From positions 30,911-94,910 of the forward strand of contig JBFWWG010000014.1 of NCBI GenBank assembly GCA_050246315.1: 64,000 nt of DNA, read 5' to 3'. Shown one piece after another: positions 31,099 through 40,079 of this stretch; position 1 is the stretch's first letter, and each line of letters opens with the position of its first letter. This DNA is from Nitrospiraceae bacterium. Its GTDB lineage: Bacteria; Nitrospirota; Nitrospiria; Nitrospirales; Nitrospiraceae. The notes beneath the pieces are model-generated. The model had not been told where the DNA came from, ran no database searches, and saw nothing but the letters and a program-made list of their open reading frames with translations. The translations under genes and the position numbers were made by a program.

Positions 31099-32373
31099 TC
31101 AGTCGGCTTGTATCCATCGTCCGATCGCACGACGGACGGCTGGTAGCGGCATGCACGTGCAGATCACGGCTCGCAGGAATCGAATTGCTCGGTTCAGCCG
31201 CCGCAAGTGCGGCTTCCAGCGAAACCACGAAGGTGGTCGGGCAACAACTGGATGATCAGCATGGCACAGCGCCAATCCATACCGCCACCGATCCCACCAA
31301 TCGTCCTTCAGTGTGAAATAGAGCGCCGCTCCATCGTGCTCATCAATACCGTGTTGTGTCTGGGCCAGCAGACTCTTCGGCATGCGTTCCGCCAACTCCG
31401 GGATTTCAAATTCCGAAGAGACTGCGCTCACAATTTCGGATGGCAGGGAGATGCTCATCACCCGATGAGCAAGACTCAACCCAAGCAGAAGCATCCTGCG
31501 ACAGTTCCACTTCTCTGCCGTGGCGAAGACGCGCGCCCAATCCAATCGTTTCGCGCGGACCAGTTCGGCAACGTCAACGATCCACTTGAGACGCTCCCAG
31601 GCATGCTTCGAACCATGCACGCACAAAATATTCAACAATTCCTCAGGGGCGAGGGTCTCAACCTGTTGACCATCGATCGGGACGCGAATACGCCGATCCC
31701 ATACATCCGCCCGGTCCAGACGAAATGAAAAGTGTTGGTGTGCCATGACCCATTGCAAATCGACGAGTATGCGGCTCTTTTCGCCCAAAAACAGATGATA
31801 CGGCTGATCAAAGTCTGACACCTGACATTCGTCTTGCGAGGGATTCAGTGGGCGGTACCCCTGCGACAGCAAGACATCTCTGGCATCCGACAACCGGGAC
31901 TGCGGCACGATAAAATCCAGATCATCGAAGTCCCTCAGATTCCTATCCTCGTAGGCCATGATTCCCAAGGTCACGCCTTTGAAAGACACGACCGGCACCC
32001 CACTCTCGTTAAAGGCTCGGCAGAGTCGCACCAGCTCTTGCGCCAACACGCGATTCAACAGCGTGCCCACCAAAGTGGACCGGCGCAGCGCACCGAGCGA
32101 CGCCTGGGGTACCAGGTCGTCGCAGACCGTACCGATCGTCCGAGACACCAGCGGTCCTACCCCGTGGTAGCGGGCGAGATCCAGCACGAACGGCCAGTCC
32201 ATCGGCTGTTGCGCCGCTTCTCGGATACGACGCCCCACCGCCTCACTCACGGTCGTACGTGCGCACAAGATGACGAACCGGGCTTCCGGAAACCATGTCG
32301 GCGGCAGACGGGTTCCCTTGTCGAATATCGGGACCTCGCTAGGCATGACCGACATGGCTTGTGCGCGCATCAT
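31099..32373 (-). CDS. Nucleotidyltransferase (NTP_transf_5-like, lasso-cluster type)
   Basis: FKG..L....Y....LRDFDDLDFIV, VDLQW, LCVHGSKHAWERLKWIVDV motifs. Confidence 0.85.
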   Translation of the reverse strand: MMRAQAMSVMPSEVPIFDKGTRLPPTWFPEARFVILCARTTVSEAVGRRIREAAQQPMDWPFVLDLARYHGVGPLVSRTIGTVCDDLVPQASLGALRRSTLVGTLLNRVLAQELVRLCRAFNESGVPVVSFKGVTLGIMAYEDRNLRDFDDLDFIVPQSRLSDARDVLLSQGYRPLNPSQDECQVSDFDQPYHLFLGEKSRILVDLQWVMAHQHFSFRLDRADVWDRRIRVPIDGQQVETLAPEELLNILCVHGSKHAWERLKWIVDVAELVRAKRLDWARVFATAEKWNCRRMLLLGLSLAHRVMSISLPSEIVSAVSSEFEIPELAERMPKSLLAQTQHGIDEHDGAALYFTLKDDWWDRWRYGLALCHADHPVVARPPSWFRWKPHLRRLNRAIRFLRAVICTCMPLPAVRRAIGRWIQAD

Positions 32374-33407
32374 CCTTTCCTTTCGAGCGGCATCGTGACG
32401 GCTCCGAAGGCTTCCACGAAAGGACGGAAATACAGGTGGCTCACCTTCCTGAACTCACGAGCCACAGGTTCCTGCAGCCCGACTCGAAGAGGTTCCCGGA
32501 CTTGGGGTACGTACAGGGTCCCGAACAACACATCCCACACGGCCAGTTTGACGCCAAAATTCCTGTTCACGTGTTGAGGATCGACACTGTGGTGGATCTG
32601 ATGCATGACGGGACTGATAAACAAGCGGCTGACGACGGGGCCAAACGACACCCAGAGGTGTGAGTGATGCCAATGATGACCCAAGAATCCCAGTGCAAAG
32701 GTGATCACGCTGATGCCGAAGACCATGGTCAATTCCATGTCGTGGGGGACGAGGTTTTGGGAGAAGACGGAGGCCATCCCGAGGAACGGAGCCTGCAAGA
32801 CGGCCGGCAGCAGGAGTTCCACCGGATGCGCCCGATAGGCGGTGATGGGAGTCAACACTTCGGCCGAGTGATGCACTCGGTGGAACGCCCATAGCACGGG
32901 AATCTTGTGAAACAAGACATGTGTCAGATAGTTCACGAGATCGTAGACGACAAAGAACCCCGCCGCGACGGCAAACAGCGCAGTGGGCGGCAGGGTTCGG
33001 GGAGGTTCCCATGCGAAGTACCCGATCATCACAGCCGTCATCGCTTTGTAGCCGACCATGCCGACCCCGCCCATGACAGGGATGAGGAGCAAATACTTCA
33101 GGAACACGTTCACCACATAGAACTTGTAATCGAGGACAGCCGATGGGTGACCATACACGTGGCGCGGAAAGAGAAAACCCCCGAACGACTGAGACGGCGC
33201 GATGTTCTTCATTCTCGCCAGGATAAACGTCATACCTCCGATCAACAGACTCGCGAGCAGATACGGCCACGCCATCCCGCTTTCCAGATCCGTAAACGTC
33301 CCGGCGACCTTTCCGATTGCGGCGGTCACGCTATCCCAAGATCGGAACGAGGACAGCGAGTACTCCGATGTCTTCTGTACGACCCAAAGGGCCCATTCGA
33401 TGAGCAT
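32370..33407 (-). CDS. Sterol desaturase/fatty acid hydroxylase family membrane di-iron enzyme
   Basis: His boxes HVLFH, HRVHHS, HHSH and HQIHHS; NFG...WD.LFGT. Confidence 0.9.
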   Translation of the reverse strand: MLIEWALWVVQKTSEYSLSSFRSWDSVTAAIGKVAGTFTDLESGMAWPYLLASLLIGGMTFILARMKNIAPSQSFGGFLFPRHVYGHPSAVLDYKFYVVNVFLKYLLLIPVMGGVGMVGYKAMTAVMIGYFAWEPPRTLPPTALFAVAAGFFVVYDLVNYLTHVLFHKIPVLWAFHRVHHSAEVLTPITAYRAHPVELLLPAVLQAPFLGMASVFSQNLVPHDMELTMVFGISVITFALGFLGHHWHHSHLWVSFGPVVSRLFISPVMHQIHHSVDPQHVNRNFGVKLAVWDVLFGTLYVPQVREPLRVGLQEPVAREFRKVSHLYFRPFVEAFGAVTMPLERKG

Positions 33408-33413
33408 GGTTCA

Positions 33414-34448
33414 CTACGCGCTCCTACGCATTTCCAACAGCGGCGTGATCAATTTCGGCAGGTCGAGAATATCCCTCCCGAAATGGAGACGATAGCAATC
33501 CACTTGTCGTACCAGCTTGGACAGCGCCTGGAACTCTTGTCGTGCGACGGTCTGATCGTACACCAGCAGGCCCTGCGGCATGATGGCTTCCAGGGCGCGA
33601 CTCTTGCTCACAAGCTCAAGGGAGCTGTGCGGAATATCCATCACCTGCGGAAAGACGATCATGGCGGGGATGCAGGCATTTCCCAGGGATCCCGGATAGA
33701 GGTCCTCAGGTTGGAAAAACTTCTTGCAGATCCCCTGTTGCAGGAGACCTGGTGCGGCGTTCCGCAATTCAGGGAAAAAGTCAACGCTGCGATCGGTCAC
33801 ATCGATCTTCATGGGGAATGCGAGCAATTCCATGTGCGTTCCGCGATCGCGAAGAAGCGGATAGTCGTCGGACAGATAGCGGAATCCGGCGCGCAGCAGC
33901 GAGAGAAACGCCGTCGTTTTTCCCTGACCGCTGTAGCCGGGAATCAAGACGCCGCGTCCACAGTATTCCAGAGCGGTCGCATGGACGGTGAAGAGATCTC
34001 TCCGCTTGAGCAGTTCCGTCAAGGCGAAGTGAAAAAAACTCGTACAGACGTCCGGATGCATGGCATCGGGATTGATGAGGTAGCCCTCTGCCACTCCTTG
34101 TGTTCCGTCGATGACCAGCACCCCCTGTTCGTGGAAATTGGCGATGAGACGCGGCCCATCCTGTTTTACCTCGCAGCGCCAGATCGACCGCAACGAATCG
34201 CCCATGGCCGGCCTTGTTCCCGAAAACAGCGTTTTCGCGGAATCAGGGATCTTCACGGGCACAGCCGCACGACCGGCCACCTCCTCAAAGCGAATCGTCA
34301 GAGTCGGCTTTCCGGTTAGGGCATCCGCACGAAAATGACGGAGAAACCCGAGCACCGGCGCCACCATTGTGGCAATTGATGTTTGGTAGCGAAGTCCCAC
34401 GCCGTGTACGGAAAAGAGATACCCTCGCATCGCTCTCTCTTGGCTCAT
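33414..34448 (-). CDS. HPr-kinase-like P-loop kinase (lasso-cluster type)
   Basis: VHATALEYCGRGVLIPGYSGQGKTT...GFRYLSDD. Confidence 0.8.
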   Translation of the reverse strand: MSQERAMRGYLFSVHGVGLRYQTSIATMVAPVLGFLRHFRADALTGKPTLTIRFEEVAGRAAVPVKIPDSAKTLFSGTRPAMGDSLRSIWRCEVKQDGPRLIANFHEQGVLVIDGTQGVAEGYLINPDAMHPDVCTSFFHFALTELLKRRDLFTVHATALEYCGRGVLIPGYSGQGKTTAFLSLLRAGFRYLSDDYPLLRDRGTHMELLAFPMKIDVTDRSVDFFPELRNAAPGLLQQGICKKFFQPEDLYPGSLGNACIPAMIVFPQVMDIPHSSLELVSKSRALEAIMPQGLLVYDQTVARQEFQALSKLVRQVDCYRLHFGRDILDLPKLITPLLEMRRSA

Positions 34449-34491
34449 TTCCAGCCTCATGTCGTCAAGACACGGTCACCATCCCAGCGAC

Positions 34492-34523
34492 CGGCTGACC
34501 GGTCCAAAGGAACCGGCCAGCCG
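34492..34523 (-). terminator. Stem-loop just downstream of the precursor peptide gene
   Basis: 12-bp stem cggctggccggt/accggtcagccg with one G-U pair on the minus strand; no long U tract, so more likely a stabiliser or attenuator. Confidence 0.55.
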
Positions 34524-34554
34524 TGCGACTAAGCACGCTCAACCCAGGTCCGGC

Positions 34555-34689
34555 TCAACTCTCGCTGCCGGCCTTGTCGTTGACCTTGTCGCTCGTCTTT
34601 TCTCGATACTTCTGCCCGGTAATGTCGCGCAGCAATTCGTGCGTCATCAGCACGGGCTCCGCATAGGATTCTTTCTGCTGTGACTCCAT
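34555..34689 (-). CDS. RiPP precursor peptide, 44 aa: MESQQKESYAEPVLMTHELLRDITG-QKYREKTSDKVNDKAGSES
   Basis: Manual translation (below the ORF-track cutoff). Strong AAGGAGGTG RBS, YxxPxL leader motif, Thr at -2, directly after the RRE gene. Confidence 0.88.
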   Translation of the reverse strand: MESQQKESYAEPVLMTHELLRDITGQKYREKTSDKVNDKAGSES

Positions 34690-34695
34690 CCTGCC

Positions 34696-35154
34696 TCACC
34701 TCCTTTCCAACGTTAAGAGTCCCTCATGGCCCAGTTGGATCACGAGGGCGAACAGGTCGTCGGCGATTCGTTCCGCCGACGCCTCGAATCGGTTGCAAAG
34801 CGCGACATGAATCTGGTGTAACGATTGCAAACCGGTACACTGGTCCCAAATCGCGCTTCCAACTCGATTGAGTGTGTAATAGCGACCCGTACTGAGATTG
34901 AGCAGCACGGTCTCACCGTCCAAACTCGTCCCCTGCACGTCGGGATTTGGCTGGGGGATGGTTTGCATCAATTGCTGGCGCTGGCCATGGCTCCCTCGTT
35001 CGACCTGCCGCCGTTCCTCCTCGCTCAATACCGCCATGGCCGCCTCGGCTAACTGTTCCGTCGTGGCACGACCGTTGATCGCAGGTTGATCGTGGTCTGA
35101 TTGCACCGTGAGATCCGGCCTCAACTCGGCTGTAATAAACGGCTGTCGACTCAT
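34696..35154 (-). CDS. PqqD-family RiPP recognition element (B1-like) with N-terminal extension
   Basis: LDGETVLLNLSTGRYYTLNRVGSAIW...F.....I..DL..LV.QL..EGLL; AAGGAGG RBS. Confidence 0.92.
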   Translation of the reverse strand: MSRQPFITAELRPDLTVQSDHDQPAINGRATTEQLAEAAMAVLSEEERRQVERGSHGQRQQLMQTIPQPNPDVQGTSLDGETVLLNLSTGRYYTLNRVGSAIWDQCTGLQSLHQIHVALCNRFEASAERIADDLFALVIQLGHEGLLTLERR

Positions 35155-35195: not shown

Positions 35196-36095
35196 TCACG
35201 CTCTCCCCGCACAGAGTAGGTCGGCCAGGGCATCGCCGATTCGCTGGCCCGTGTGGTTTTCGAAAAACGTAAACCCAGGGCTTGTATTGACCTCGAAACA
35301 GTAATAGGCCCCGTCCGGTGTCCGGCGCAGGTCGATCCCGCTGAGACTCAATCCGAGACTCTTCGCCAAATGGAGACAACGAGTCTGCAGGTCCTGATCC
35401 AAATCGACCGCCCGCATGCTCCGCTGTTTGTTGTCACGCTCGACATAGCGATAGTCCGTGCCGTCCGACCGGACTTCGGTTGCAAAAAGTCGATCGCCCA
35501 CCGTATGGACGCGCAGATCGACTCCTGGAATCATTTCTTGGAGCTGCACGGGGCAGTAGCGGATCTGCTCTAATCGGTGGAAATCATCCGGTGTCAGCGG
35601 TTTGACGATGGACCGTTCCGCACTGATCGACTTGTACACCACGCGCCCATCGCACGACTCGTAAAAGGCACGGGCTTCCTCCGGCACCATCGTCACCAGG
35701 GTGTTGGGGACCCGAAACCCGTGCTGTGCGATCAGCCGCTGCTGGTGCGGCTTCGACATATTCGTGTGCGACGCCTGCCGGCGATTGACGACCAGCATGG
35801 GCAGGCTCTCAACGAGTTCCCAGAGAGACGCTGACGCCATACGTTCTCTCGTCGTCGAGACGGCACGACTCGCCATCGCCCGCAGGTAGACGGAAGCGAG
35901 ATCGGCCACGTGAATCACTCGGCTTTCAATCCGAAGACGATCTTGGACGATGCCCGTTTCCGTGGACCATGCGACGTCCCAATCCATCCAATCCGACTCG
36001 GGATGGACGAGCATGAGTTCCGCGTTCCGGGCCGCGAGCCTAGCGCAGACGTTCGCGAGCACCGGATCGGCCATCGGCCCCACTAAGAGAATCAT
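35196..36095 (-). CDS. ATP-grasp ligase (RimK/MvdD-like)
   Basis: NMSKPHQ, GFRVPNTLVT, VVYKSIS, LQEMIPGVDLRVH, DYRY, GIDL and YCFEVNTSPGF motifs. Confidence 0.9.
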   Translation of the reverse strand: MILLVGPMADPVLANVCARLAARNAELMLVHPESDWMDWDVAWSTETGIVQDRLRIESRVIHVADLASVYLRAMASRAVSTTRERMASASLWELVESLPMLVVNRRQASHTNMSKPHQQRLIAQHGFRVPNTLVTMVPEEARAFYESCDGRVVYKSISAERSIVKPLTPDDFHRLEQIRYCPVQLQEMIPGVDLRVHTVGDRLFATEVRSDGTDYRYVERDNKQRSMRAVDLDQDLQTRCLHLAKSLGLSLSGIDLRRTPDGAYYCFEVNTSPGFTFFENHTGQRIGDALADLLCAGRA

Positions 36096-37059
36096 GAAAC
36101 GTAAGACTCCTCATCTCGGACAGGTAGCCAACCAGCCGACGAACGATTTCCTGCTGCAACTCCTGCGGACAATGCCAATAGCTGGGCCTTGGACTGACAT
36201 CGAGACAATAGACGGCGCCTTCAGCCGTCAGAACGCATTGGCACTCCGCAAAGGACAGTCCAAGCCGGCGAACCAGATCGAGGCATGGCCGGTTGAGGAG
36301 GGACGGAACCTCGGTCTCCGTTCCTTGCCGTTCATTGCATCGCACCACGGACGCCGCCACATCGTGCCCCGCGACATACACCGTCATTCGCCGTCCGTCC
36401 GGAACCGCTTGCATCGAGATGGCACTCGTCTCCATGACTCGACGGATCTGTTCGATGCCGCCCTGAGCGGAGAGATACAACCCTGGCTCCTCCGACCCTA
36501 GCCGTTTCACATAGACCCGCTCTCGCCAAGTCGAAAACTGCAAAGTGGCATCAGCCGGATTGGACGTGCACCGAGAGGACGGAAGGCGAATGCCCTGTTC
36601 TTCGGCGAGTCGGCTCAGGAACGGACTTCCTGACAAGACCACAGGACGGCCGCCGAGAACGGGACGATTGACCACCGCGCAGGGCAAGGCATTCAGAATG
36701 GCCAACCATGCGGCCGTGGATTCTTTGACGACGTAATCCCGATCTTCTGGAGAAAGCTCACCGAGTTGGAGGGGGAGCGGCAGCGTCAGGCGAGAAAAGA
36801 CTCCGGTGAGATCACTGAGCGGAATGATTGTATCGTCGATCGCCAGCGAGCCGCGCACGATTACCGATTCGGCCTCAACCGGCCAGTTCAGCACCACTCG
36901 ATCCAACAGGTGCGCAGGCTCGACCCAACGGACCTCCGCGCCGCTTCGCCGCGCTTCTCGATAGATCAGGATCGCCCAGGGATCGGTGGAATCGGCAAGA
37001 ATCAGAATCACGGGGTGTGACCCTTCTCCGACACACTTCACGAGCAGGTCTTTCGACAC
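36040..37059 (-). CDS. Divergent ATP-grasp-fold protein
   Basis: Colinear with the neighbouring ligase (LPCAVVNR, GIRLP, VYVK, LGLSFA) but with YCLDVSPRP in place of YCFEVNTSP. Confidence 0.7.
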   Translation of the reverse strand: MSKDLLVKCVGEGSHPVILILADSTDPWAILIYREARRSGAEVRWVEPAHLLDRVVLNWPVEAESVIVRGSLAIDDTIIPLSDLTGVFSRLTLPLPLQLGELSPEDRDYVVKESTAAWLAILNALPCAVVNRPVLGGRPVVLSGSPFLSRLAEEQGIRLPSSRCTSNPADATLQFSTWRERVYVKRLGSEEPGLYLSAQGGIEQIRRVMETSAISMQAVPDGRRMTVYVAGHDVAASVVRCNERQGTETEVPSLLNRPCLDLVRRLGLSFAECQCVLTAEGAVYCLDVSPRPSYWHCPQELQQEIVRRLVGYLSEMRSLTFHDSLSGADGRSGARERLR

Positions 37060-37434
37060 TGCCCCCCAAGAGACTGCACCATGATTGATGTGCTGGAGAG
37101 TAATTGGGCCGTGAGCCCCTGCCTAGTTCACTAGAAGGAGGACCAGCCCCTACTTTATGCGGTTCTTCAGGCTTTTGTGTGGGGAGCGGGGATAGCCCTT
37201 ATCGCCTCGGCTGACGAAGGCCGGGCGCCTCCGGGCCTTGCCCGGATGCGATGGTGTCGCCGCCCTCTTCTCATGTCGTCCTGGTGGTCGCCGCGCCGCT
37301 GAGGCCGCGCCGGAGCGCGAAGCCGGCGCGGCGACCCCCGAGCCCGGCACCTGACTGGCTTGCGCCCGCCCGGGCCGCGGCCCTCCGCGCGCCGCCCTCC
37401 CAGCCTCGCCGCACGCCTGTCCCGGGGAGCAGAG

Positions 37435-37617
37435 CGAGGGAGGCCCGGTCGCATTGCCGGAGGATCGGGGCCCCACCGAGGGCACGGCAGGAAGGAAAGC
37501 TGGACCTGGCCGATGCCCCACGGTCGCCAGACCGTGGCGGAGCGAATTCCAGAAGGGTTCCGCCTGCGGAGCCCCGGAAGGGTCGATCCGGGAGGTGCGA
37601 GAGCGGGCATCCCCTCG
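37435..37617 (-). ncRNA. Rod-like structured element, copy A (unknown family)
   Basis: Long imperfect inverted repeat; core 37456-37595 is homologous to 45425-45545 with compensatory changes. Confidence 0.55.
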
Positions 37618-37768
37618 TCCGCGCCGAGGGTGTGAGTTTTACAAGCAACCCACCCGATTTCCGGAAGAGCCCTTTATGCTATAGGTGCGATGAGGCCGCA
37701 CACGAAAGCGGACCGCTGGTTGGGCACTGACAGGCAGACGAGTTGAAAGCTTCCGATCGGAGGCGAGG

Positions 37769-39637
37769 TTAAACGGCCTGCTGATAGTGCTGAGCCTGGG
37801 TCAGGAAGAGCGTGGCGTACAATCCGCGCTGACGTAGGAGGTCGTCGTGAGTGCCTTGCTCGACGATCTGCCCCTGCTCCACGACATAGATCCGGTCGGC
37901 CATCTTGACCGTCGAGAGTCGATGACTGATCAGAATCGCCATTCGGCCCTTGGCCAATTCGTGAAACCGCTCGAACAGCTCTGCCTCCGCCTTGGCATCC
38001 ATGGCGCTGGTTGGCTCATCAAGAATCAGGATCTGCGAGTCCCGCAGCACGGCTCTGGCGAGGGCCACTTTCTGCCATTCGCCGATGCTCAATTCATGGC
38101 CGCCATCGAACAATTTGCCAAGCACCGAGTCATACTGCTGGGGCAGTCGTTCGATGGTCGCGTGAACCCCCGCTTGTTTGGCCGCTTGCGTCACGGCGGC
38201 AAGGTCTCCGCCGGCCGACGGCACGCCGAGAGCGATATTGTCTTTCGCCGACATCTGAAACTTGACGAAGTCTTGAAAGATCCCGCTGGCGGCGCCGCGC
38301 ACATCGCTGATCCGATAGTCGCGCAGATCCACCCCGTCGATCGTAATACGTCCGCCCGTGGGATCGTAGAGACGGCACAGCAACTTGACCAACGTGGTTT
38401 TGCCTGCGCCATTGGCTCCAACGAAGGCGACGTGCTCTCCAGGCTTGATCGCAAAGGTGAAATCGTGGATCGCGACGCGGGCCTCGTCGGGATAGCGAAA
38501 GGTGACGCGCTCGAAGGCGATGCCTTGAGTCATCGGCTTCGGGAACGGCTTCGGGTGCGCGGAAACCGGCAGACGAGACCGGATGCACAAGAATTCATCG
38601 AGCGTCGTGAGGAAAAGACTGCTCTCATAGAGACTCGAGACGCTCCAACCCAATCCCTCCAGGAATGCGGCCGCCCGTTGGATAGCTTGGAAATACATCA
38701 CGAGGTCTCCCACGGTCAGTACCCCGTGCACCGTACGCGCCGTCACCAAGCTATAGACTCCGAACACTCCAGCCACTCCCACAATCTGCGCCGCAAGACC
38801 GGCAAGTGCCCACCGCCGCTCCAGGGAGATGCGTTCCTTTCGCAGTAGCGCCCGCGTGTCCTGGAATGCCCGCCGCAGCCCAGCGCCCAGATCAAACAGC
38901 CGCACTTCCTTCGCCGCCGTGCCCTGTGTCAGGAGCCAATTGAGATACCAGGCTTTCCGTTCAAGCGGCGTTCGTTCACGCTCCCAGGCGAACAGACTAT
39001 TGGATTGTTGCAAACGAACCAAGAAGTACGGGGCGGCGGTCAGCACCAGGATCGGGATGACCGACCAATGCAGCCACCAGAGAATCGCGGCCATCGCCAA
39101 CAAGGAGATTCCGTCTTGCCCGAGCTGTAGGAGCGAGTTGAGGATCGCCGTCGGTCGGTGCGGCGCTTCCTGTTGCGCACGATGCAGCGTGTCTTGATAC
39201 CGGGCGTTCTCGTAGTACTCCAGGTCCACCTCAACAGACTTCGCCTGGAGGATCGCGTGCATGTGGTCCGTGACCACTTGTGCCTGAATGCGGGAAATCA
39301 GCGAGGCCACGACGGTGAGCAGCGCGCTCGCGACAGCGACGCCGGCCAGCATGCTGAGAATCATGGTAATCGAGGTCGGCATCGATCGGCTCGACGGTTC
39401 CGTGATTCCCTGCGTAACGGCATCAATCAGCAGCTTTGTCAAATAGAGCACCGCGAGAGGCAGGAGGCCCTGGACCACACGTACGGCGATACTACCCAGA
39501 GCCCATGTGGGACTGCTCTGCCAGACAAAAGAGAGCGCAAGGCGAAGGGTTGCGAGGAAGGGTCTCAGACGTTCCCAGGACTTGTACAACACAGACTTGG
39601 ACGCGGGCGGTTGCGACGATGGGCTCACGCTAGCCAT
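37769..39637 (-). CDS. ABC exporter (fused TMD and NBD)
   Basis: GANGAGKTT, LSIGEWQKVALAR, LILDEPT and ISHRLST motifs; no C39 peptidase domain. Confidence 0.93.
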   Translation of the reverse strand: MASVSPSSQPPASKSVLYKSWERLRPFLATLRLALSFVWQSSPTWALGSIAVRVVQGLLPLAVLYLTKLLIDAVTQGITEPSSRSMPTSITMILSMLAGVAVASALLTVVASLISRIQAQVVTDHMHAILQAKSVEVDLEYYENARYQDTLHRAQQEAPHRPTAILNSLLQLGQDGISLLAMAAILWWLHWSVIPILVLTAAPYFLVRLQQSNSLFAWERERTPLERKAWYLNWLLTQGTAAKEVRLFDLGAGLRRAFQDTRALLRKERISLERRWALAGLAAQIVGVAGVFGVYSLVTARTVHGVLTVGDLVMYFQAIQRAAAFLEGLGWSVSSLYESSLFLTTLDEFLCIRSRLPVSAHPKPFPKPMTQGIAFERVTFRYPDEARVAIHDFTFAIKPGEHVAFVGANGAGKTTLVKLLCRLYDPTGGRITIDGVDLRDYRISDVRGAASGIFQDFVKFQMSAKDNIALGVPSAGGDLAAVTQAAKQAGVHATIERLPQQYDSVLGKLFDGGHELSIGEWQKVALARAVLRDSQILILDEPTSAMDAKAEAELFERFHELAKGRMAILISHRLSTVKMADRIYVVEQGQIVEQGTHDDLLRQRGLYATLFLTQAQHYQQAV

Positions 39638-40079
39638 GAGCCGGTTTCTCGATTGCCTTCTCCCGGTAAGGATCGAACGGATAGGAAAAGGTCACGGTAT
39701 ATTGTTGCCATTGGCGTGAGGGCTCTTGAAACGGATGGCCATCGAGCGTGAGCCAGGCATGTCCGTCCAATGTTCCCTCCTCCCTCCTCACGCCGCAATG
39801 AAGTCGGACGGGTAACCCCGCTTGTCTGGCACCTCGATACAGGACCACGGAGCGAGGAAAACAACTGCCCTTCGTATTGTAGGGAAAGAGGAGGAGCCAA
39901 CGGTCGACGTAGTGGACAAGATCCTCGACCGGTGTGTGCGCGCCTTCCGTCAAACCGGGTTGAGGCTCCAACAGGCTCAGCACCGTTGGCAGACTCAGAA
40001 AGCGCAACAAGATCCGAACCCAAAGGACGAGCAGACCCACACGGCATACCGTCCAATACTTGGACACCCATCGCGTCAT
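39630..40079 (-). CDS. Lasso peptide B2-type leader peptidase (transglutaminase-like)
   Basis: SCFPRS..LY......G.PV.LHCGV......LDGHAWL (Cys/His catalytic residues). Confidence 0.9.
   Translation of the reverse strand: MTRWVSKYWTVCRVGLLVLWVRILLRFLSLPTVLSLLEPQPGLTEGAHTPVEDLVHYVDRWLLLFPYNTKGSCFPRSVVLYRGARQAGLPVRLHCGVRREEGTLDGHAWLTLDGHPFQEPSRQWQQYTVTFSYPFDPYREKAIEKPAHG

Follow-up and report, generated by a model that had tools for sequence, protein, structure and literature searches.

Which modification awaits a short peptide whose leader is of the lasso type, whose core repeats lysines and acids at regular spacing, and whose gene neighbours two ATP-grasp genes? The question arises from a gene on the minus strand of a 64,000-nucleotide stretch of DNA, the whole of which is hereafter called the window, from a Nitrospiraceae bacterium (assembly GCA_050246315.1, contig JBFWWG010000014.1). 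The initial annotation had read it as an unannotated precursor with a lasso-type leader and a core of periodic (D/E)K units, open to lactam formation by ATP-grasp ligases. We propose that the core is better described as a tandem of KxxD/E units, that the adjacent ATP-grasp ligase probably lactamises it, and that the neighbouring RRE probably serves as a two-ended adapter.

A conserved precursor gene and its cluster

The cluster, all on the minus strand, comprises genes for a B2 peptidase, an ABC exporter, a divergent ATP-grasp-like protein, an ATP-grasp protein, an RRE, the precursor, an HprK-related kinase, a hydroxylase and an NTP_transf_5 protein. Its features are the following.

39630..40079, minus strand: lasso B2-type leader peptidase (NF033537, 46.5 bits, cut-off 33; sole PF13471 match in the genome)
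37769..39637, minus strand: ABC exporter (profile match)
36040..37059, minus strand: ATP-grasp-like protein 1 (profile match to ligase 2, prob 99.8; TIGR04187, 5.5e-12)
35196..36095, minus strand: ATP-grasp ligase 2, with catalytic residues and leader-pocket acids present (RimK, 1.6e-10; TIGR04187, 3e-38, below cut-off)
34696..35154, minus strand: RRE (PqqD/B1-type, residues 81-147) with an N-terminal extension of about 70 residues (PF05402, 5e-16; structure model)
35116..35142, minus strand: PF[IV]xxxxRP arm (RRE residues 5-13), proposed ligase-activating leader (motif distribution; putative role)
34696..34704, minus strand: Shine-Dalgarno-like AGGAGG overlapping the RRE stop codon (sequence)
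34555..34689, minus strand: precursor peptide gene, 44 codons and stop (translation matching the earlier one; homologues; synonymous bias)
34615..34689, minus strand: lasso-type leader, residues 1-25, with Y-17, P-14, L-12, E-8 and T-2 (sequence and profile of 63 leaders; predicted cut site)
34558..34614, minus strand: predicted core of 19 residues, three tandem KxxE/D units (K2-E5, K6-D9, K10-D13) and K14..E18 (putative rings)
34455..34560, minus strand: run of hairpins 3' of the precursor gene (-52.9 kcal/mol, z -3.5; 1 of 200 shuffles as stable; candidate role only)
33414..34460, minus strand: HprK-related kinase (TIGR04352, 3e-15, below cut-off)
32370..33407, minus strand: enzyme of the fatty acid hydroxylase family (PF04116, 2e-23; OlsE-like, 3e-17, below cut-off)
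31099..32373, minus strand: NTP_transf_5 nucleotidyltransferase (PF14907, 1e-57)

At 34704-34696, AGGAGGTGA holds both a Shine-Dalgarno-like site and the stop codon of the upstream RRE gene. Translation of the minus strand confirmed the ORF as first described, with its leader spacing, Glu in place of Gly, the Lys positions, the acids preceding them and four Ser/Thr. From the leader spacing we infer a cut after T24-G25; numbered from there, Tyr lies at -17, Pro at -14, Leu at -12, Glu at -8 and Thr at -2, and the core has Lys at 2, 6, 10 and 14, acids at 5, 9, 13 and 18, and Ser/Thr at 7, 8, 17 and 19.

Homologues of the precursor were found in 21 of 26 related loci, and the codon differences from 12 relatives over codons 9-34 are synonymous in 93 cases and non-synonymous in 51. 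Leaders were selected by a motif with Y, P and T fixed; in the 63 distinct ones obtained, positions left free by the motif are conserved as well (H in 59, L in 62, R in 61, D in 56), beyond what chance would give. Y, P, L and T stand at the lasso positions in the window precursor, and position -8 is Glu in 48 of the 63 and Gly in 2. Both the ORF and its K/D/E pattern, whose loss from homologous clusters was to have told against the first reading, are conserved there. Judged by this conservation and by the codon differences, the 44-residue ORF is a conserved RiPP precursor gene with a lasso-type leader.

Calling the gene unannotated overstated its novelty, because a near-identical precursor is already listed in a predicted, uncharacterised graspetide group, group 39 of Carter et al. 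2026 (PMC13097080); the supplement gives it in a row for MEX5212544.1, one residue away from the window's peptide. The cluster of locus L001, 95-98% identical to the window, matches a listed group 39 precursor, and the paired occurrence of a listed precursor with its ligase, as well as the transglutaminase-fold neighbour, are found here. Further group 39 rows are from Nitrospirota, Chloroflexota, Cyanobacteria, Alphaproteobacteria and Armatimonadota, and the main text states that a transglutaminase-fold protein accompanies groups 33 and 39, with nothing further on them in its available passages (PMC13097080).

The closest named loci are from Nitrospira and Nitrospiraceae. At E 1e-40, ligase matches occur in 14 of 401 genomes of the phylum, nine of which, at 47-78% identity, carry this type of cluster; in an Acidobacteriota sample, one of 401 genomes has a match at E 1e-55. 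In two more distant relatives (L038:6032-8323 and L039:12387-14678), the place of the ABC exporter, between B2 and ligase 1, is taken by a pair of genes that, judged by sequence, look like oxidoreductases.

Is the product a lasso peptide?

Lasso cores have a small first residue with an acid at positions 7-9. The cluster contains the leader, the B1-type RRE and the B2 peptidase of a lasso pathway; no lasso cyclase (Asn-synthetase-like) was found among its genes, a gene content that relatives maintain, and the core shows neither a small first residue nor a fixed acid at 7-9. The core had been judged atypical because of Gln1, and rightly so: residue 1 is variable.

A true lasso, with Gln1 joined to Asp9 by a cyclase whose gene lies elsewhere in the genome, on contig C2, is extremely improbable. 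Asp9 would suit a ring of 7-9 residues (PMC8498205), and the genome does hold an RRE and a lasso-cyclase-like gene (NF033535, 464 bits, cut-off 525) for only one B2. However, the C2 cassette has a canonical precursor of its own, with Gly at -8. The best matches to the C2 cyclase are only 28-37% identical in all five complete or near-complete relatives that carry the cluster, and no match to it was found in the related loci surveyed. Twelve different amino acids occur at core residue 1, and G, S, C or A at this position combined with an acid at 7-9 is seen in only 16 of 76 cores. Lasso cyclisation in trans was rejected on these grounds, the cyclase having no close match in the five relatives and the first residue and ring acid not being fixed.

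The core repeats KxxD/E

To describe the core, precursors were collected by the leader motif, and cores of 8-70 residues were kept when their leader end passed a second filter; two frameshifted L022 cores are included. Kin are not independent, so the following comparisons with 1000 shuffles show a pattern rather than significance: KxxD/E is present in 68 of 76 distinct cores downstream of a ligase (mean 29, maximum 40; 8 cores lack it) and in tandem in 36 (maximum 4), and an acid stands 155 times at +3 from Lys (mean 37.6, maximum 54) and 112 times at -1 (mean 41.8, maximum 59). In a 73-core subset, 79 Lys have a nearby acid only at +3, 38 only at -1, and 70 at both. The +3 acid thus dominates, and as far as these sequences tell, the conserved unit of the core is KxxD/E rather than the (D/E)K first proposed. 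In the ligase-free neighbouring cassette, whose leader is near-identical, KxxD/E occurs in just 1 of 20 cores. Ser and Thr, which had been counted as part of the pattern, change position from core to core.

A precedent exists for rings on such units, since MyxF forms Lys1-Glu4 and Lys5-Glu8 lactams on KxxEKxxE (PMC12848669). Taken with the core statistics, it leads us to predict K2-E5, K6-D9 and K10-D13 as the likely rings of the window peptide. ATP-grasp lactams, the chemistry anticipated by the initial annotation, are supported by the conserved K/D/E pattern and by the cluster; the conserved spacing favours tandem i,i+3 rings over the stacked or ladder-like staples that had been derived from an i+4 periodicity. 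In a sister clade of ligases described below the register differs. Ring size is therefore not taken over from the proteins of that clade, and for the i,i+3 assignment we depend on MyxF, which belongs to a different ligase clade.

It is also conceivable, if quite unlikely, that the adapter exists as proposed and the rings are others: longer or overlapping lactams (Lys to the acid at +7, or acid to the Lys at +5), lactones on Ser/Thr, or a ladder. Besides the different register in the sister clade, an enrichment at offset +7 (69, shuffle maximum 44), and at -1 too, would fit such rings, but periodicity forces both; offset +4 is marginal (52, shuffle maximum 51). Against them, cores in which two Cys flank a single Lys-x-x-Asp retain only the +3 pair, 60 of 149 acids at +3 have no subsequent Lys, and MyxF offers its precedent for Lys(i)-Glu(i+3) (PMC12848669).

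The cores with two Cys form a third core type (L003, L007, L010, L013, L017, L018 and others), in which one KxxD lies between the Cys and the precursor gene precedes a hydroxylase gene. A lactam inside a disulfide loop is possible there.

The ATP-grasp pair

The best PDB matches of ligase 2 (7drm, 5ig9, 7mgv) are peptide-maturase structures. In an alignment of 66 homologues, K115, K155, R195, D255, E268 and N270 are invariant, and D171 is kept in at least 90%. D170/D171 align with E191/D192 of 5ig9 (MdnC), which have been named as leader-recognition residues (PMC12848669). The score of ligase 2 is below every curated maturase cut-off. Ligase 1 can be aligned to it along its length, yet lacks K115, R195, DYRY, D255 and N270; because most of the catalytic residues are not retained, it is likely a catalytically dead partner.

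That the peptide acquires no intramolecular ring, the ligase adding amino acids to side chains of Lys or acids or cross-linking chains as RimK-like enzymes do, or the product being a linear phospho-glycosylated peptide while the ligases act elsewhere, seems very unlikely. Pfam does label the enzyme RimK-like, and the ligase-free cassette indicates that no ligase is needed for leader, RRE, kinase, NTP transferase and B2 to work. Yet peptide-maturase models and structures score far above RimK, and fixed donor-acceptor spacing is confined to the ligase cassette.

More distant ligase pairs, of 36-46% identity, were also noticed (G000:C11:133228-133983, which is L043, and L023, L024 and L040-L045). 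They sit beside ORFs that look like peptidases or phage-tail proteins, and no RRE, arm or recognisable precursor was found alongside.

An arm on the RRE

The model of the C-terminal domain of the RRE matches TbiB1-leader complexes (E 2e-6, rmsd 1.4). The N-terminal extension of the RRE, on which the initial annotation is silent, begins with the arm, PF[IV]xxxxRP, present in 31 of 31 ligase-adjacent RREs and in 0 of 13 others; 12 of these 13 are close paralogues in ligase-free cassettes, and the contrast may reflect a single evolutionary event. P5, F6, R12 and P13 are invariant in 13 aligned rows. Further ligase-linked RREs from metagenomes, more distant, have the arm or FIxxxxRP variants of it, and two loci hold one plain and one armed RRE. 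The general signature of activating leaders is Phhx(1,2)h (PMC8939145); in this clade the PF motif is located on the RRE and not on the precursor, whose lasso leader has a loose Phh stretch.

The arm has a confidence of 57-65 when the RRE is modelled alone. A predicted complex of both ligases with the RRE arm scored 0.71, but a control in which ligase 1 was replaced still reached 0.59, and the prediction was counted neither for nor against the model. A profile search with the arm returned only 18 matches, which include RRE proteins as well as two long proteins resembling precursors; the motif is too short, and therefore unsuitable for a survey of this kind.

Motif distribution, the sister-clade proteins and fusions described below, the leader-pocket acids and literature precedents, taken together, make it likely that the arm is this ligase clade's activating leader, relocated onto the RRE, where it would bind the ligase.

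Alternatively, the ligase could read the precursor's own leader. The RRE would then serve B2 and the tailoring enzymes alone, and its arm would be a mere tether or the remnant of an ancestral fused precursor; we regard this as unlikely. A Pro followed by two hydrophobic residues in the precursor leader fits the loose graspetide signature (PMC8939145), so that direct reading is conceivable, and leaders of ligase cassettes differ from those of ligase-free cassettes at -15 to -10. On the other side, F, I, L, R and P of the arm are invariant in 32 RREs that are 32-74% identical to the window's, the arm is kept in fusions, where a tether is unnecessary, and HELLRD[IV]T also occurs in the leaders of ligase-free cassettes.

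Sister clade, fusions and tree

A sister clade of ligases was found among 80 metagenome loci and other genomes. There, PF[IV]xxxxRP opens 18 distinct long proteins, rich in K/D/E and encoded beside the ligases. They are 140-230 residues long, with K/D/E repeats after the motif and, mostly, a likely coiled-coil end. Many of these loci are short contigs, so the absence of RRE and B2 from the clade (0 of 19 loci with a match) is unproven; the lasso leader was found in 0 of the 18 proteins. We predict that the long proteins are precursors, and two of them are group 39 rows in the supplement of PMC13097080. Their acids lie at +1, +4 and -2 from Lys, and at +3 for just 19 of 547 Lys.

In a quick tree of 88 rows, with close Nitrospira rows thinned to ten, the ligase clade without RRE (SH-aLRT 99) is sister to the RRE-linked clade (91), their union having 99. 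The midpoint root serves for drawing only and gives no direction of change. Six proteins, of which the two named ones are cyanobacterial, fuse ligase and RRE, and the PF motif is retained in the linker of all three fusions examined in full. AlphaFold2 modelled the ligase of a natural fusion well, but the arm and RRE with a low confidence of 36-63 on only 6 alignment rows in that part, too little to inform the model proposed here.

At L046, L059-L083, L098-L102 and L119, K-D-x or E-K-x triplets number as many as about 25 in the long proteins adjoining the ligase pair, whose C-terminal end is coiled-coil-like. These proteins could be heavily cross-linked peptides or structural proteins.

A proposed pathway

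Gene content, conservation, motif distribution, fusions and the tree form the part of the model that is directly observed. From there, the pathway might run as follows. The RRE domain would grip the YxxPxL leader, as its fold and the lasso B1 proteins suggest. Its arm would dock in the leader pocket of the ligase and activate it in trans, as the counterpart of the PFFARFL-type leaders that act in cis. Ligase 2, probably together with the dead ligase 1, would join Lys(i) to Asp/Glu(i+3), closing up to three small rings. Kinase, nucleotidyltransferase and hydroxylase might perhaps decorate the core, and finally B2 would cleave after Thr-Gly and the ABC transporter export the core.

The site of the kinase can be guessed at. 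In 34 loci extending 4.4 kb or more downstream, the cassette kinase is present wherever the core has Lys-Tyr, as it does in 26 loci; of the 8 without such a core, 5 lack it and 3 have it. This co-occurrence makes Tyr3 a candidate phosphorylation site, if a tentative one. The known site of a lasso kinase is the C-terminal Ser (PMC8498205). Phosphorylation of a C-terminal Ser as a rule of the family was rejected, such a residue ending only 6 of 73 cores. As for the hydroxylase, corallotide has, according to its abstract, a hydroxylated isopeptide Lys; the analogy is loose, and that residue is made by another enzyme family.

Relation to known systems

Two sets of traits meet in this cluster. On the graspetide side, there is a maturase-type ATP-grasp ligase with its catalytic residues (below the curated cut-offs) and a conserved pattern of donors and acceptors in the core. 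On the lasso side, split B1/B2 clusters such as those of paeninodin and pseudomycoidin (PMC8498205) share with it the leader spacing, the B1-type RRE, B2, an HPr-kinase homologue, a nucleotidyltransferase and an ABC exporter; they differ in that the window system lacks a cyclase and fixes neither the core start nor the ring acid.

The myxomiditides made by MyxF (PMC12848669) are alike in their ATP-grasp Lys(i)-Glu(i+3) lactams on tandem KxxE and in their cooperating ligases, one of which is inactive alone. Unlike here, their leader is in cis, of the microviridin PFFxRF type, and their product is a tricyclic cage; the available passages mention no RRE or B2, and they have Glu where the window system often has Asp. 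Of the class 3 microviridin motifs (PMC12848669), neither (KxxE)n followed by TxKxPSDx(D/E)(D/E) nor the PFFxRF leader was found in the window precursor.

Leaders fused to the enzyme (in cis) or added in trans activate engineered graspetide systems (PMC13003496). These resemble our model in that the activating leader is split from the core and placed on or beside the enzyme; here, however, the arrangement would be natural, the leader being borne by the RRE that is proposed to deliver the substrate. Closer in kind may be LPL-family auxiliaries of grasp-with-SPASM loci (Makarova et al. 2022, PMC8939145), helpers with a leader-like motif suggested to contact the ligase where precursors lack the motif. 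They are from another branch and are other proteins, the suggestion is made in passing, and no RRE fusion, lasso leader or B2 appears in the available passages. As for group 39 itself, the lasso-type leader, the RRE arm and the two architectures reported here are absent from the available passages of PMC13097080, whose supplementary description may mention an RRE. In the literature covered, which includes PMC9576775, PMC10885120 and PMC12710340 in part and few subscription papers, we found no description of a graspetide pathway that depends on an RRE and has a lasso leader or an arm of this kind. The precursor is real and belongs to a group already catalogued, if uncharacterised; the proposed adapter mechanism is apparently undescribed.

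We lean, if only slightly, towards regarding these clusters as a natural hybrid class of RiPPs. The RRE would bear the activating leader of the ligase and act as a plug-in adapter that brings any peptide with a lasso-type leader to ligase, kinase, hydroxylase and lasso peptidase, yielding libraries of KxxD/E-stapled, decorated peptides. If so, this would be a natural leader-in-trans graspetide synthetase, with the cyanobacterial fusions as its natural leader-fused form, and two RiPP classes would have recombined, the leader of one shifting onto the recognition protein of the other and the core becoming free to diversify. Core diversity is indeed visible: there are three types of core, a cassette may hold up to three precursors, and a ligase-free cassette shares B2 and exporter. 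The system offers a testable case of natural trans activation and, for tandem Lys-Asp/Glu stapling in which leader removal is built in, a candidate enzyme with a portable leader, and it indicates an unstudied peptide product in nitrite-oxidising Nitrospira.

Other cassettes, transcripts and a repeat

Just upstream, many Nitrospira carry another cassette, whose RRE, kinase and nucleotidyltransferase are paralogous; it has no ligase, and its precursors have a near-identical leader. In such ligase-free cassettes upstream of B2 (L007:314-3367, L031:15044-17999 and similar loci), the RRE has no arm, the precursors have Cys-containing cores, and no cyclase match was found in the stretches examined. 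Another lasso-type cassette, at G000:C2:500394-506287 (L030), is the one considered above: it holds an RRE, the cyclase-like gene, a precursor at C2:502734, ORFs resembling a methyltransferase and a kinase, and a nucleotidyltransferase, without B2. Its canonical precursor is the only other match among 4199 short SD-led ORFs scanned in the genome. Since the sole B2 of the genome is the window's, the C2 cassette may borrow it.

Searches around the precursor ORF gave no sigma-70 promoter and no Rfam match, and no terminator was called behind it on the minus strand. In four of four RNA-library runs from 2 studies, a short exact-match contig covers most or all of the ORF (the whole of it in 2), at a depth of 127-359 against 4-42 for neighbours, and two other RNA runs show no such peak; these contigs, which carry neither strand nor level, give a hint only.

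Between the ABC and ligase 1 genes, at 37161-37672, lies an element of 512 bp and 72% GC, for which no Rfam or plasmid match was found. It looks like a non-autonomous mobile repeat, and six further near-full copies, 89-97% identical, are present in the genome.
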